59,498 bases of DNA from an uncultured Verrucomicrobiota bacterium (GTDB lineage: Bacteria > Verrucomicrobiota > Verrucomicrobiia > Limisphaerales > AAA164-E04): the NCBI GenBank assembly GCA_913061285.1, contig CAJXVR010000004.1, positions 1 to 59,498 of the forward strand, written 5' to 3'. A model generated the notes under the pieces. It saw only the letters and a program-made list of their open reading frames with translations. It did no database searches and was not told where the DNA came from. The first letter of the stretch is position 1, and each line of letters begins with the position of its first letter. Shown piece by piece: positions 33,922 to 42,767 of this stretch. Made by a program: the position numbers and the translations under genes.

Positions 33922-35508
33922 TTAGGCCGTTGCTCGATAAATAGCCCAACGTCCAGATCCTTCGATCGCAAGCAATCCGTACTGGTTCAGTTTTTTGAGG
34001 AGGTAGTTGGCTCGGTGCCGATCAATTTCGAGGAGTTCCCGGCAGTCGCCATTGTTGATCATCCCGTGTTCACGCACGTATTCCAGGATTCGCGACTCGT
34101 CCGACTCTAGATCGCTCTCATTGGCCCGTTGCGCACGCTTGTTGAGCAAGGCTTCGGAATCAACCGGGATGGCGGGCTTTGCGGGCGCCGCAATGGGGGC
34201 TGGATTGATTGTTCGTTGGCGAACATGAATGAAATGAAGGTGTTCCGGTTGAATCATCGTTCCGCCGGATTCTAAGATGGCTCTTTCAATGATATTCTTG
34301 AGTTCCCGAATGTTGCCGGGAAAGGAGTGAGTTTTCAGGCGTTCGATGGCTTCTTGGGTGATTGGAACGTTCTTGGGAAAGCCAAGTTCGGCGGAGAAGT
34401 ATTGGACGAAATGGCCGGCTAAGAGGGGGATGTCTTCGCTTCGTTCTTGGAGTGTCGGCAGTTCAATCACGAAGCGTGCGAGCCGATAGTAGAGATCTTC
34501 ACGGAAGCTGCCGGCTTCGATGTTTTGAGTGAAGTTGATATTGGTTGCGGCGACGATCCGAACGTTTGATTGCCTTTCTTCGGTGGCGCCAATCGGGGTG
34601 AATGCGCCGGATTCGAGGACACGGAGAAGTTTGGCTTGGAGGTCTAGTGGCATCTCTCCGATCTCATCTAGGAAAAGGGTTCCATTGTGAGCCATTTCAA
34701 ATAGGCCCAGTTTTGCTCCGGTGGCTCCCGTGAAGGATCCTTTCAAATGTCCAAACAGGGTCGACTCTACCAGTTCGGTAGGAATCGCTGAACAATTCAT
34801 GGCCACAAAGGGGCCTTTGGCTCGGGATCCTCCGTAGTGGATAGCTCGTGCGACCATCTCTTTGCCCGTCCCGCTTTCGCCGGTGATTAGAGCGCTTGTC
34901 TTGTCTGCTTGCTGTAGAATCTGTACCTGCTTGAGTACGGACTCAAGTTGGGGGCTTTGACCGATGATGCCATCGAATCCCCAGCGATCCGATTGTTGCT
35001 CGCTTACGATTTCAAGTTGACGATTGATTTGTGATGTTTCTTTCTCCGCTTTTTCGCGCTTGCGGATCTCGTTTTCAAGCTCGTGATTGCGATCGCGAAG
35101 GGCTTGAGTTAGGCAGCCGATTTGAAGGTGGGTTGAGACACGGGCGTGTACCTCTGCCTCGGAAAAGGGTTTGGTCAAGTAGTCGACACCGCCGGCCTCG
35201 AATCCCGCTACTACGTCCTCAGTTTCTGTGCGGGCAGTGATGAAGATGATAGGGGTGTGTTGAGTCTCGGGAAGGCGCTTGAGTCGACGACATGTCTCGT
35301 AACCGTCAATTCCGGGCATCATCACATCGAGGAGAATGAGATCAGGAGCGCTGGCAGCGACTAGTTTGATTGCTGTTTCTCCATCGGTTGCGGCTTGGAT
35401 GCGGTAACCTTGACTCTCGAGGGCCTCACTCAGGATGCGAAGATTCGCAGGGACGTCGTCAACAATAAGAATGCGGGCTCCTGCTGTGTTGACTTGGGGC
35501 TCACTCAT
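33922..35508 (-). CDS. Sigma54-dependent response regulator (REC-AAA+) with atypical C-terminal winged-helix-like domain
   Basis: REC (ILIVDD, LLDVMMP, KPF); Walker [15 protein letters not shown] loop; [28 protein letters not shown] 35508 overlaps the kinase 3' end. Confidence 0.93.
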
Positions 35509-38500
35509 CGTTCGTTTTTTGTAGAAGGGCAATGATTTGTTTCATGTCGAAATTGGCTGCAAGTTCACCGAGATGTTCGGCGAATAATTCAGCCTCAGGG
35601 CTTATCACTTTGACCTGTTCGAGAAGTTCTTTGAATTCGGTGGTTTGGTAGCCTTCGGCAGCTCGACGAAGTTCTCGGAGAAGACTAGCGGGAATGTCGG
35701 GAGTCGATTGGTCTTCGTCCCAATCGATGATTGGGGGTTCCGTTGCATTGATGAATTCTAGCGCGAGAAGACGTTCCAGGCAGTGGACGAGATCCTCGAT
35801 GAGAAAGGGCTTCGAGATAAAGGCGTCGAAACCCGCTTCGTTGTAGGAGGATTCCTCATGCGATAATGTCGAGGCTGAGATAGCGACGGTCTTCACGTGG
35901 CGATTGTTATTCGGTAGCTGACGAATCTGCTCGATGGCTTCGAATCCATCCAGTTTGGGCATGCGTATGTCGAGGAAAACGATATCGAACTCGGAGTCTT
36001 GAAGCCTCTCTAGCCCTTCACTCCCATCGTTCGCTGTCGATATGGTGGCACCCATGTCCTGAAGGATTTGCCCAAGGACGTGTCGATTCTCAAGGACATC
36101 GTCGACCACCAAGCAGCGGAACGCTCGAGTGCTCGTGAGTTGGAGAGGCGCCGCTTCGGTTGGCTTGCGGTAAAAGGCAGTTGCAGTTTGGCCGTCAGGC
36201 AAAGGGATGCTGAATTCGAAGCACGAACCGGTCTGCTCTTGGGACTCGAAGTGGAAACTGCCTCCCATTAAATCGACATGCCGTTTGGCGATTGCCAATC
36301 CGAGGCCTGTGCCGCCGACGGATGCTGCGTTGGCTCCTTGTTGGAAGGGATTGAGAATGTTTTCTTGTTCGCTCTGTGGAATGCCGCAGCCTGTGTCTTG
36401 AACTTGAAAGGTGTATTGAGTTGTGTCCGAATCGGCGGCTGTCTCGGAGATTTGAATGTTGAGTGTGATCCGTCCTCGGTCGGTAAACTTGGTTGCATTC
36501 GATAAGAGATTGATCAGAACCTGTCGCAACTTTGACTCATCTCCGCGGACAAGGATTGGAGCTCTCGTGTCGTTTGGGTTTTTCCCATCTCGTTCGTCTG
36601 TCCAAATAACTTTCCAGTCCAAGCCTTTTGACTGGCAGCGGACTCGAAACATCGCAGCGAGACTCTCGATGGTGGTGCGAAGATCGAAATCTTCGGCAAC
36701 AAGGTTGACTTGCTCGGCTTCAATCTTTGAGAGATCAAGAATATCATTGATGAGATTGAGAAGGTGCTGCCCGCTCTGCGACATGGTCTGCACGGCGCTT
36801 CGTTGTTTATTGTTTAGCTCAGCGTCACGTAAGAGGATTTGTGCGTACCCTAGGATCGCATTCATGGGGGTACGAATCTCGTGACTCATGTTGGCGAGAA
36901 AAACAGTTTTGGCACGGTTGGCACTTTCGGCCGATTCTTTAGCCTTGTTGAGGGCCAGGTTTTGAGCCTGCTGATCCTGAAGCATTTTTTCTTTCAAGCG
37001 GTGGGTCTGACGTTCCAGGTGCCGGGATGTGCGTCGATTCTGGTAAAATCGCCAACCGTAGGCGAAGGCTGCCCCTGTGATTCCGACGAAGAGCAGGGCG
37101 ATCGGTCCGATTGTCCATGCATTGCGAAACCACGGTTCAATCACGCGAAATTGGAGTTGAGTGGCTCGTGAGTAGTGAAGGTCGCGATTGATTGATTGTG
37201 CCTCGATTAGGTAGTCACCGGGCTCGGTCGGGATCCATTCGAAGAGGTCCGAGACTCGCGGATGGCTCCATTCCGTTGTTTCAGTGGGACCGTGAATGCG
37301 AGTTCGGTATTGACGTTTTTCCGGCCGAGTTTGGAAATCAATACTACTAAACTGCACTGAAACCCGGGTTCCAGTCAGAATGTCCGGGAGCTCGTCCGAT
37401 CGAACTTCGCCTCGGTCGGTTTGGATGGATTGAACCCAGACTTTCGGGCGAACGTCTGATCGTTGGTAGGCGGTGATTCCTTTGCTTGTGTTGAAATAGA
37501 GGGTTCCCTGGCTGTCTTCATTGACGCTGAAGACGCGATTGTCACCAAGGCCATCTCGTTCATCTAACGAGGTCCAAGCTTCGCCGTTGTAACCGATGAC
37601 GCCGTGTCCCCAGGAGGCGAACCAGATCGTTCCTCGGGAATCTCGATAGGCGTCTTCAAATCGGTGTTGCGGCGTGTTATTGGCGTTTTGATGGGTTTGA
37701 AATCGATCGCCATCGTATGAAACGATGCCGCGATAGGTTCCGAACCAGATCCGGCCCAGTTCATCTTGGCTGATACTTTGCACACGGTTACTGGGTAATC
37801 CGTCGCGGGTGGTTAGTTGTTGGAATCCCTCGGCGTTGCCGTACAAGACCCCGCCCTCGCGGGTGGCAATCCAGAGTGTATCTTCTTGGTCTTGAAAGAC
37901 ATCGTAGAACCAGCTGACTTTGAGCTGATTTTCGCTGAGAAAGGTGGTTAGTTGTTGAATGATTGGGTGCTTTTTCTGAAGCCTGAGGTTCGTGCTGAGT
38001 TTGGCGATTTCAGCGTTGGTGCCAATCCATGTCGTCGCGTCTTGGCTCGGGCTAAAACTATGGATTCGGCCGCTTCGAAGGCCTTCGCGTTTGGTGAAGC
38101 GTCTGAATGTTTGATCTCGATAGTGGGCGAGACCGGCGTAGGAAATATGCATGCCTCCGGTGCCAATCCATAGCCCCTCTTGCCCATCCGAGACGATCCT
38201 ACTGATGTGATTACTGGGTAATCCGTCTAACTCTGAATAGTTCCTAATGGCGAGATACTTAGCCCCTTTCTTAGGGCTGACCGCTCGGGAATTGGTTCGG
38301 GTGAATGGCTGGATTCTCGAGAGACCGGATTGACTACCTACCCAGAGATTTTCCTGTTCATCGATATGGCTACTCGCAATGCTGTTCCCTTGAATGCCAT
38401 GGTTTTCGTTGATTGTCGTGAGGGAGGCTTGATACCGAAACAAACCACCGAGACCCGTTGCGAGCCAAATATTGCCACTCAGATCCTTATAGATGGCTTC

Positions 38501-42713: not shown

Positions 42714-42728
42714 CTTGGTCAATCCAAG

Positions 42729-42767
42729 GGTGGGGTTCACTGAGATTTAGTGAACCCCACCTTTTTT
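42729..42767 (+). terminator. Rho-independent terminator
   Basis: 13-bp stem GGTGGGGTTCACT / AGTGAACCCCACC followed by T6. Confidence 0.9.

Follow-up and report, generated by a model that had tools for sequence, protein, structure and literature searches.

The window analysed here, a 59,498-nucleotide (nt) stretch of contig CAJXVR010000004.1 (assembly GCA_913061285.1) from an uncultured Verrucomicrobiota bacterium of the order Limisphaerales, carries three genes that appear to form a self-activating sigma-54 two-component module: a hybrid sensor kinase and an NtrC-type activator on the minus strand and, diverging from them, a target gene for a protein of 587 amino acids (aa), with repeats of the 9-bp word TCCGCATAG in the control region between. 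We give this reading, in the steps set out below, a probability of roughly 0.7; it was reached by comparing sequences, and it leans mainly on a promoter and repeat layout that recurs at constant offsets in eight target loci from six genomes. The features of the module in the window are the following.

33922..35508, minus strand: gene for the NtrC-type activator, likely start ATG 35508 (Pfam, translation and motif positions).
35501..40438, minus strand: gene for the hybrid sensor kinase, likely start ATG 40438 (Pfam, hydropathy, PDB sequence matches and tail alignment).
40527..40542, minus strand: kinase-facing sigma-54-type -24/-12 element, TTGGCGTAAGTTCTGC, with GG at 40540-40539 and GC at 40528-40527, about 90 nt upstream of the ATG.
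40632..40693, plus strand: kinase-side repeat set, made up of TCCGCGTAG at 40632 and the tandem pair TCCGCATAG-N2-TCCGCATAG at 40674-40693.
40732..40773, plus strand: target-side repeat set, made up of a single copy at 40732 and a tandem pair at 40754-40773.
40774..40886, plus strand: T-rich spacer, 43% T, with six runs of at least 4 T.
40887..40902, plus strand: TGGCATGCCTCGTGCA, predicted as the sigma-54 promoter that serves the target gene (GG 40888-9, GC 40900-1); predicted transcription start near 40912-40913.
40928..40936, plus strand: leader repeat copy, ACCGCATAG, 41 nt past the T of TGGC, at about +15 to +23 of the predicted transcript.
40950..42713, plus strand: target gene, 587 aa (translation, homologue alignment and profile-profile match).
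42726..42771, plus strand: intrinsic terminator of the target gene (18-pair stem at 42726-42764, 3-nt loop, T run).

The activator frame runs from 33922 to 35532 on the minus strand, with TTG at 35532 as its first codon, and encodes 528 aa when read from the ATG at 35508; the kinase frame (35501-40459) encodes 1645 aa from the ATG at 40438, the methionine at which its Atlas record begins. The kinase stop codon (35501-35503) lies 2 nt ahead of the activator ATG, indicating that the two genes are translationally coupled. The gap between kinase and target is 511 bp if the kinase is taken to start at its ATG, and 490 bp if its frame is read from the first TTG. The initial annotation had described coupled kinase and receiver-AAA+ genes diverging from a single terminator-bounded gene, an arrangement borne out by the gene coordinates, the Pfam matches and the 18-pair terminator; the repeats, T tracts and GG-N10-GC promoter that it placed in the gap, facing the 587-aa gene, were all found on reading the sequence.

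Five exact copies of TCCGCATAG start at 40674, 40685, 40732, 40754 and 40765, every one of them on the plus strand, and one-mismatch copies start at 40632 and 40928. Two tandem pairs are formed, with 11 bp from start to start within a pair and 80 bp from pair to pair, so that the earlier description of the repeats as phased holds for the 11-bp pairs and not for the pair-to-pair distance, which varies in relatives. Counted from the T of TGGC, the target-side pair begins 133 bp upstream; the leader copy has the orientation of the upstream copies. The word itself is not enriched in the 8.0-Mb genome (63 occurrences, where base composition predicts 63.3); genome-wide, copies within 300 bp of each other were found only in the control region of the window (n = 5) and on contig C19 (n = 2). 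The strict sigma-54 consensus occurred 47 times in the genome against 48 expected, indicating that a consensus match alone is uninformative and that the weight of the target promoter comes from its conservation. The T-rich spacer may be bent or may bind an architectural protein. Within it, at 40830-40845, a loosely conserved G(G)GTTTT tract recurs in 7/7 aligned loci, some 45-57 bp before the target promoter, and may likewise be where such a protein binds. A two-mismatch repeat copy (TCGCATAGG, 40433-40441) overlaps the kinase start codon.

A comparison of orthologous intergenic regions, proposed at the outset, was carried out on eight promoter-bearing target loci from six genomes: the window's own genome (G000, two loci), G033, G160, G370 and G042 (one each) and G401 (two). 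Loci cut by contig ends, namely that of G385 and the target fragment of G092, were left out of the layout comparison. The layout recurred in all eight loci. Each had a GG-N10-GC promoter, of the form TGGCAY-N5-BTGCM in seven and TGGCGC-N5-TTGCA in G042, and each had a repeat copy 131-135 bp upstream of the promoter T, exact in six loci and with one mismatch in G042 and in one of the G401 loci (L100), as well as a second, weaker copy 11-13 bp beyond it. A leader repeat was present at offset 40 or 41 in the eight loci (exact in five, one mismatch in three); its distance to the start codon ranged from about 10 to 50 nt, while its offset from the promoter stayed constant. The T content of the spacer was 30-46% in the seven loci examined for it. 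Apart from promoter, repeats and T-rich spacer the control regions do not align, and the target-family proteins share 38-52% identity across the compared loci. The upstream-enhancer picture of the initial annotation agrees with the copies 131-135 bp upstream in every locus, and leaves the fixed downstream copy unexplained. The control region of G160 (L027, about 10900-11300) is far longer than the others and contains several AGTAGCCGCCTTCGCAAGAAGGTGGA-like units of about 25 nt in both orientations, resembling a small dispersed repeat.

Genome-wide scans gave the same association. In the window's genome, a promoter followed 20-30 nt on by the repeat core was found at the window target, at a paralogue on C19 and in one weak match on C38 (C38:14704, plus strand, TGGCTC...CTGCT...TCCGCATGG). 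In the five relatives the composite promoter-leader pattern gave six matches, all of them upstream of target-family genes, and a reversed control pattern gave none. The repeat cluster on C19 lies upstream of an unlinked target paralogue (50% identity) at a contig end, where the promoter TGGCACGGGGACTGCA, an upstream repeat pair and a repeat copy between promoter and start codon are all present. The layout was not found at target paralogues of a second type (C40; L029/L081; L080), one of which, a two-domain protein of the window's genome (C40:12812-14620, L030), is flanked by a protein of 1236 aa that has a BclA_C/TNF-like domain and by one of 989 aa assigned to no family. Nor was a clear promoter or repeat pattern found at the paralogous activator systems (C230 and C67 in the window's genome, L070 in G370); a motif match in L070 was rejected as a control element, as it falls within a coding frame.

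The kinase-activator pair adjoins the target divergently in four of the eight loci (window, G033, G160 and G042), with identities between orthologues of 46-48% for the kinase and 68-72% for the activator, so that the suggested check on co-occurrence showed the linkage to be conserved in half of them. Over several comparisons the orthologue identities span 44-55% for the kinase and 67-77% for the activator. The genes flanking the module in the window are not shared with the G033, G160 and G042 loci, and a 123-aa frame downstream of the activator is present in the window's genome only. In G370 a distance of 61 kb separates the pair from the target, and the neighbour of the pair is the lyase gene (91% identity) found next to the target in the window, indicating that the target has moved or been displaced; in G401 the pair lies on a different contig from both targets. 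Repeat copies persist beside the kinase in both genomes (G401 has four, as two 11-bp pairs), and the displaced targets retain the proximal pair, the promoter and the leader copy, which suggests two repeat sets with different clients. Conserved repeats at separated loci argue, as far as sequence can, for a protein acting in trans through the TCCGCATAG word.

Six of seven kinase orthologues also have a GG-N10-GC element facing them, 70-100 nt ahead of the start codon; the chance expectation for TGG-N9-TGC, estimated from simple base odds, is about 0.02 per 100 nt on one strand. The kinase-side elements are listed below.

Window: TTGGCGTAAGTTCTGCA (GG 40540-39, GC 40528-27).
G401: TTGGCCCAAGTTCTGCA.
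G370: GTGGTGCGACTCCTGCA.
G042: TGGTACAACTCTTGCA.
G033: TGGTATGGCATTTGCG.
G092: TGGTACGGCACCTGCG.
G160: weak or ambiguous candidate only.

None of the kinase-side promoters is followed by a leader repeat copy. Divergent sigma-54 promoters flanking shared repeats imply positive autoregulation; judging from these elements, the kinase-activator operon very probably has a sigma-54 promoter of its own and the module is probably self-activating. The proposal that the circuit is dedicated to one gene did not stand, given the unlinked second target with matching promoter and repeats and the promoter on the kinase side.

The activator has the domains expected of its class, with Pfam matches to Response_reg (E 3.9e-33), Sigma54_activat (E 1e-65) and AAA_lid_14, a phospho-acceptor Asp69 within LLDVMMP, a Walker A motif GESGTGKE at 218, GSFTGA at 265 (one substitution relative to GAFTGA) and a Walker B motif LFLDE at 286. 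A single rpoN gene is present in the window's genome (DNA-binding domain, E 1.1e-59). No Fis-type helix-turn-helix (HTH_8) was found in the last 102 aa of the activator among Pfam matches up to E 5, and its description as atypical was in this respect correct. The final ~60 residues are the best-conserved part outside the ATPase: a putative recognition helix (12 residues at 504) and a wing GxGRWAxYR (GSGRWA at 525) are invariant in all six aligned sequences, which include a 55%-identical paralogue. From the residue pattern, which gives three helices and a hairpin, and from sub-threshold profile matches, this domain looks like a winged helix. An activator orthologue with the C-terminal domain was found in five of the six genomes bearing the layout, a contig end truncating the sixth; of the 401 genomes sampled from the order, 29, the window's included, have the domain on a frame of 500-600 aa. 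The 17 closest proteins in a large collection all have receiver and/or sigma-54 interaction domains and none has HTH_8. The last 79 codons of the activator are duplicated at 90% identity on another contig of the window's genome (C2:1897-2784, L069), with one in-frame stop upstream, and this fragment continues with a copy (78% identity) of the 123-aa frame found downstream of the activator in the window; the fragment is either a partial duplication that has decayed or a strain variant that entered the assembly.

The kinase matches Reg_prop (E 1.1e-50), Y_Y_Y (E 1.2e-4, below its cut-off), HisKA, HATPase_c and Response_reg in Pfam. A signal or anchor segment (frame residues 10-28) is followed by about 1080 periplasmic residues, a membrane helix at about 1114-1135, HisKA, HATPase_c, the receiver and a tail; the periplasmic part comprises an N-terminal region without a family, a CarboxypepD_reg-like domain, the Reg_prop propellers and Y_Y_Y. 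In a PDB sequence search the sensor matched solved sensor domains of hybrid two-component proteins (4a2l, E 1.6e-40; 3v9f; 3ott; 3va6), which we take to be glycan-sensing proteins of Bacteroides. The kinase ends in a helical tail of about 65 aa (35504-35700, minus strand) conserved in all six orthologues; the last 99 aa of the kinase gave no Pfam match at E up to 5, with neither an AraC-type domain nor a histidine phosphotransfer (Hpt) domain. Seven Hpt matches occur elsewhere in the window's genome, two of them in small frames on contigs C164 and C205, and transfer of phosphate from kinase to activator is possible either directly or by a relay. Two candidate assignments were discarded: a PA14-like N-terminus (Pfam E 0.19, Atlas score 0.76) and an Hpt identity for the tail, which has the look of Hpt helices by eye and lacks a Pfam match, its histidine being present in only four of six orthologues.

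The target protein is a tandem duplication joined by an acidic linker. Domain 1 (about 38-305) has Cys103, His180, Asp218, His224, Asp227 and Arg229, all of them kept in 16/16 homologues; domain 2 (about 320-587) has the equivalents of these residues except the cysteine, which is replaced by Gly390, a position that is glycine in 15 of the 16 homologues, with the other key residues retained. When the family profile was compared with that of six bona fide NlpC/P60 proteins from related genomes, the probability was 95.6% (E 1.3e-8, 103 columns), and the alignment placed the family cysteine on the DCS motif and the histidine on the GDL...H motif of NlpC/P60, that is, on the catalytic pair. Among 89 family members, weak matches to NLPC_P60 were obtained in 18, to CHAP in 11 and to Amidase_6 in 3 (E up to 0.01), the window's own target domain having none of them; among 30 sampled relatives six had weak matches of these types, one of which was above the curated cut-off. 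Gly129, His143, Asp181, His187, Asp190 and Gly207 (domain numbering) are invariant in the 89 members and the cysteine is nearly so. A C-terminal extension of about 90 residues contains an invariant Asp, His and Asp, a near-invariant Arg, GxGxG and WS. An Atlas structural model had template modelling scores of 0.47-0.49 to clusters named as NlpC/P60 or CHAP, a lead only. On these profiles, the target appears to be a tandem of remote NlpC/P60-like domains, the first with the cysteine and the second without, and domain 1 is probably catalytic (Cys-His). We infer that the protein is exported, from a hydrophobic stretch at the N-terminus, after which the homologues have small residues.

The target family proper is rare. 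It numbered 18 proteins, including the query, in a collection of 5.8 billion, and occurred in 16 of the 401 sampled genomes of the order, the window's own included; its relatives are from Verrucomicrobiota, one of them from Limisphaerales. A search for related loci with the single target protein found none, and the loci were found with an alignment as query. The domain profile reaches much further: with a limit of E 0.001 it matches 777 representative clusters, and with one of E 1e-10 it still matches 366. Most are single-domain proteins of 230-310 aa, and among distant members there are fusions to dockerin, CBM_4_9 or Spherulin4 domains. A search of 21 related genomes recovered canonical NlpC/P60 domains in only 6, and some of the genomes have the divergent target family at one to three copies.

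These observations can be arranged in a sequence of steps, each of them predicted. The propeller and Y_Y_Y domains of the kinase would bind a ligand, by homology most likely a glycan or a cell-wall fragment, and the kinase would phosphorylate the activator receiver, directly or by relay. The activator would bind the 9-bp TCCGCATAG word through its winged-helix-like C-terminal domain and assemble an AAA+ ring, which would open two divergent sigma-54 promoters in the 511-bp region, that of the target and that of the kinase-activator operon, the latter giving positive feedback. The ring would also open the promoter of the unlinked target paralogue. The cis elements of these promoters were identified by comparison, and their activity is expected on that ground. 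The tandem 11-bp-spaced pair about 134 bp upstream would be the core enhancer, with the T-rich spacer aiding looping, and the copy at about +15 would be an extra site for the activator; our preference is that it anchors one more subunit pair with the ring astride the promoter, a braking role being equally open. The product would be an exported protein that most likely cleaves an amide bond in peptidoglycan or in a related envelope or glycan-peptide substrate. The core of the ligand-sensing sigma-54 circuit first proposed is thus upheld at the level of sequence (linkage in 4/8 loci, cis layout in 8/8, rpoN, propeller homology), though not its dedication to a single gene, a purely upstream set of sites or phasing beyond the 11-bp pairs.

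Several observations weigh against this reading. The last 102 aa of the activator have only weak, sub-threshold matches to MarR_2 (E 0.004) and TrmB (E 0.015), so that the winged-helix assignment draws partly on matches below threshold, and among solved structures the tail matched nothing better than E 0.03, with an ArsR-family chain scoring E 0.39. In the kinase a receiver is present and no Hpt domain is recognisable, which makes the phosphate path to the activator ambiguous. A protein bound at +15 would sit beneath the open complex, a position no less suited to a brake than to an anchor. The target protein has no Pfam or NCBIfam match above threshold, sequence profiles built from 19 or 89 sequences found no solved relatives, and its N-terminal segment is only moderately hydrophobic, with a modest hydropathy peak. 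In G160 (L027/L074) the kinase-side element is, as listed, no better than a weak candidate, and the target frame (about L027:8858-10612) has two in-frame stops, TGA and TAA, with promoter, repeats, kinase and activator intact; a pseudogene or an assembly error is possible. Of 22 public runs listed, 18 contain part of the stretch, as contigs, and the four that were compared were fragmentary only. A presumed RNA run covered pieces of the target gene and of the 5' end of the kinase gene, and a poly-A RNA-Seq library yielded a 194-nt contig internal to the target gene; a DNA run also had comparable gaps in part of the control region. Nothing about transcription or start sites is concluded from these runs.

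Alternative explanations concern either the control region or the protein. The word TCCGCATAG could be bound by a different protein, a repressor or an architectural factor, with the activator working from solution or from other sites and the leader copy serving as a blocking operator. The +15 position is indeed typical of repressor sites, the C-terminal domain of the activator is under the curated threshold of every DNA-binding family, and activators without DNA-binding domains exist in related phyla. Against this, the repeats travel with the promoter and, in combination with it, occur genome-wide only at regulon genes (the one weak C38 match aside), they stay beside the kinase-activator operon after the target has moved, the last 60 residues of the activator are its most conserved part outside the ATPase, and the locus has no further conserved regulator gene, the downstream frame of 123 aa being confined to the window's genome; we consider this explanation quite improbable. 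That the leader copy acts as RNA, the transcribed UCCGCAUAG being a binding or pairing site for translation or stability and unrelated to the DNA copies, would suit its place in the predicted 5' untranslated region and its constant distance to the promoter in the eight loci. It shares, however, its word, its orientation and a flanking A/C preference with upstream copies that are not transcribed, it is fixed relative to the promoter and not to the start codon, and no further leader sequence is conserved, so that this idea is very hard to credit. A chance juxtaposition, or a decayed remnant without present function, might be read from the chance frequency of the strict sigma-54 consensus in the window's genome and from the interrupted target of G160; with promoter, pair and leader copy at constant offsets in eight loci of six genomes, among divergent proteins (38-52% identity) and control regions that cannot be aligned, it can be set aside almost entirely.

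For the product, the alternative is that the target is not an envelope enzyme at all, being instead a binding protein or pseudo-enzyme, or an acyltransferase, deamidase or toxin-like effector of papain fold, and that the kinase senses something other than a glycan. The loss of the domain 2 cysteine in 15 of 16 homologues points that way, as do the remoteness of the family from NlpC/P60, where the C-terminal extension (Asp, His, Asp, Arg, GxGxG, WS) is missing, and the dockerin, CBM_4_9 or Spherulin4 fusions of distant members. The cysteine and histidine of domain 1 are, on the other hand, kept in all 16 homologues, the cysteine is nearly invariant and the histidine invariant in 89 diverse members, and the two align with the catalytic pair of NlpC/P60; we hold this alternative to be unlikely, and of those weighed here it is the one to be taken most seriously. 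The self-activating sigma-54 module can also be taken further, to an undescribed class of enhancer-binding protein whose winged helix reads head-to-tail repeats and needs both the -134 and the +15 sites, the ring on a loop of about 175 bp wrapping the closed complex as a coincidence gate with positive feedback, and whose output is a new exported Cys-His enzyme family that generates the ligand of the sensor; this extended version is speculative and, taken whole, unlikely.

Thirteen loci of single-domain target relatives were examined for their neighbourhoods, most of them labelled Opitutaceae or Opitutus. In six (L031, L075, L078, L082, L084 and L087, checked with Pfam) a regulator of receiver-LuxR type lies within about 400 bp or just after an adjacent PAS kinase; in L085 one lies about 4 kb away, in L034 a receiver domain is adjacent, and in L086 there are receiver-domain matches about 4.5 kb away. 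No receiver regulator was found within the DNA examined in L032, L076, L077 and L079. The single-domain relatives of L031 and L034 also adjoin PAS-PAS histidine kinases. Regulators beside single-domain relatives indicate that the family tends to travel with a dedicated two-component regulator, the sigma-54 version being one of several solutions, and such neighbours suggest an activity that is held off until a signal arrives. Elsewhere in the window, a 550-aa frame (31015-32667, plus strand) has alpha/beta-hydrolase matches over its N-terminal half and ends in a fumarylacetoacetate-hydrolase C-terminal domain, an unusual fusion.

Full-text literature searches found no description of such a module, in keeping with the initial remark that the combination was not recognised as described; a search for Reg_prop together with sigma-54 gave no match containing 'Reg_prop', and a 2011 sigma-54 survey (PMC3162934) makes no mention of Verrucomicrobia, NlpC, peptidoglycan hydrolase or murein. 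The comparison defines a complete putative regulon (sensor, activator, operator word, two promoter types and targets) for a sigma-54 subfamily with a non-canonical DNA-binding domain, and it joins a propeller sensor, of the kind used in glycan sensing by gut Bacteroides, to a sigma-54 output. The fixed leader operator copy is a concrete, testable oddity in enhancer geometry, and the target points to a widespread uncharacterised NlpC/P60-like branch (the 777 representative clusters), several Verrucomicrobiota members of which lie beside two-component regulators. To our knowledge, there has been almost no experimental work on regulation in Verrucomicrobiota.

Compared with known systems, the module resembles an NtrC-type system to which a sensor of the hybrid two-component family has been joined. 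With NtrB/NtrC at glnAp2 it would share a receiver-AAA+ activator phosphorylated by a kinase, an enhancer about 100-160 bp upstream of a GG-N10-GC promoter, adjacent multiple sites that favour ring assembly and autoregulation of the regulator operon. It differs in having a winged-helix-like domain instead of a Fis-type helix-turn-helix, sites that are head-to-tail 9-bp repeats at 11-bp spacing, whereas NtrC sites are inverted repeats, a conserved leader site, and a hybrid kinase with a very large periplasmic sensor. The hybrid two-component systems of Bacteroides have a homologous Reg_prop/Y_Y_Y sensor, membrane helix, HisKA, HATPase and receiver; in contrast to them, the kinase of the module lacks a C-terminal AraC-type domain and has an extra N-terminal region of about 350 residues, its output would go through a separate sigma-54 activator, and one or two hydrolase-like genes would be controlled, not a polysaccharide utilisation locus. 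Held against the marks of these classes, the module has the core features of sigma-54 activators and lacks the Fis-type helix-turn-helix of the NtrC class, the AraC domain of the Bacteroides hybrids and the Hpt domain of unorthodox kinases of the ArcB/TorS type.

The activator is closest in description to the DVU0151 orthologues of Desulfovibrionales, the one case found in which a predicted winged helix has been noted for activators of this kind. According to a passage of PMC4641369 they have no annotated Fis-type domain, and a winged-helix superfamily model matches their C-termini; the likeness is one of description, and that passage gives no such binding motif. The target resembles the NlpC/P60 and CHAP cell-wall cysteine peptidases and amidases in having its Cys and His on the catalytic pair and in its PGD...GH motif context, and differs from them in scoring below the family thresholds, in its C-terminal extension of about 90 residues and in its tandem of a putatively active and a cysteine-less domain. 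Single elements of the operator have precedents: in FleQ-type regulation a sigma-54 activator binds downstream of the promoter, within the leader, and winged-helix regulators of the OmpR/PhoB type bind head-to-tail repeats one helical turn apart. Unlike either, the module combines upstream and leader sites at fixed offsets and places a winged-helix-like domain on an AAA+ activator, and what sets it apart is its operator geometry (head-to-tail repeats, a fixed leader copy and divergent promoters), its non-canonical DNA-binding domain and its orphan enzyme family.

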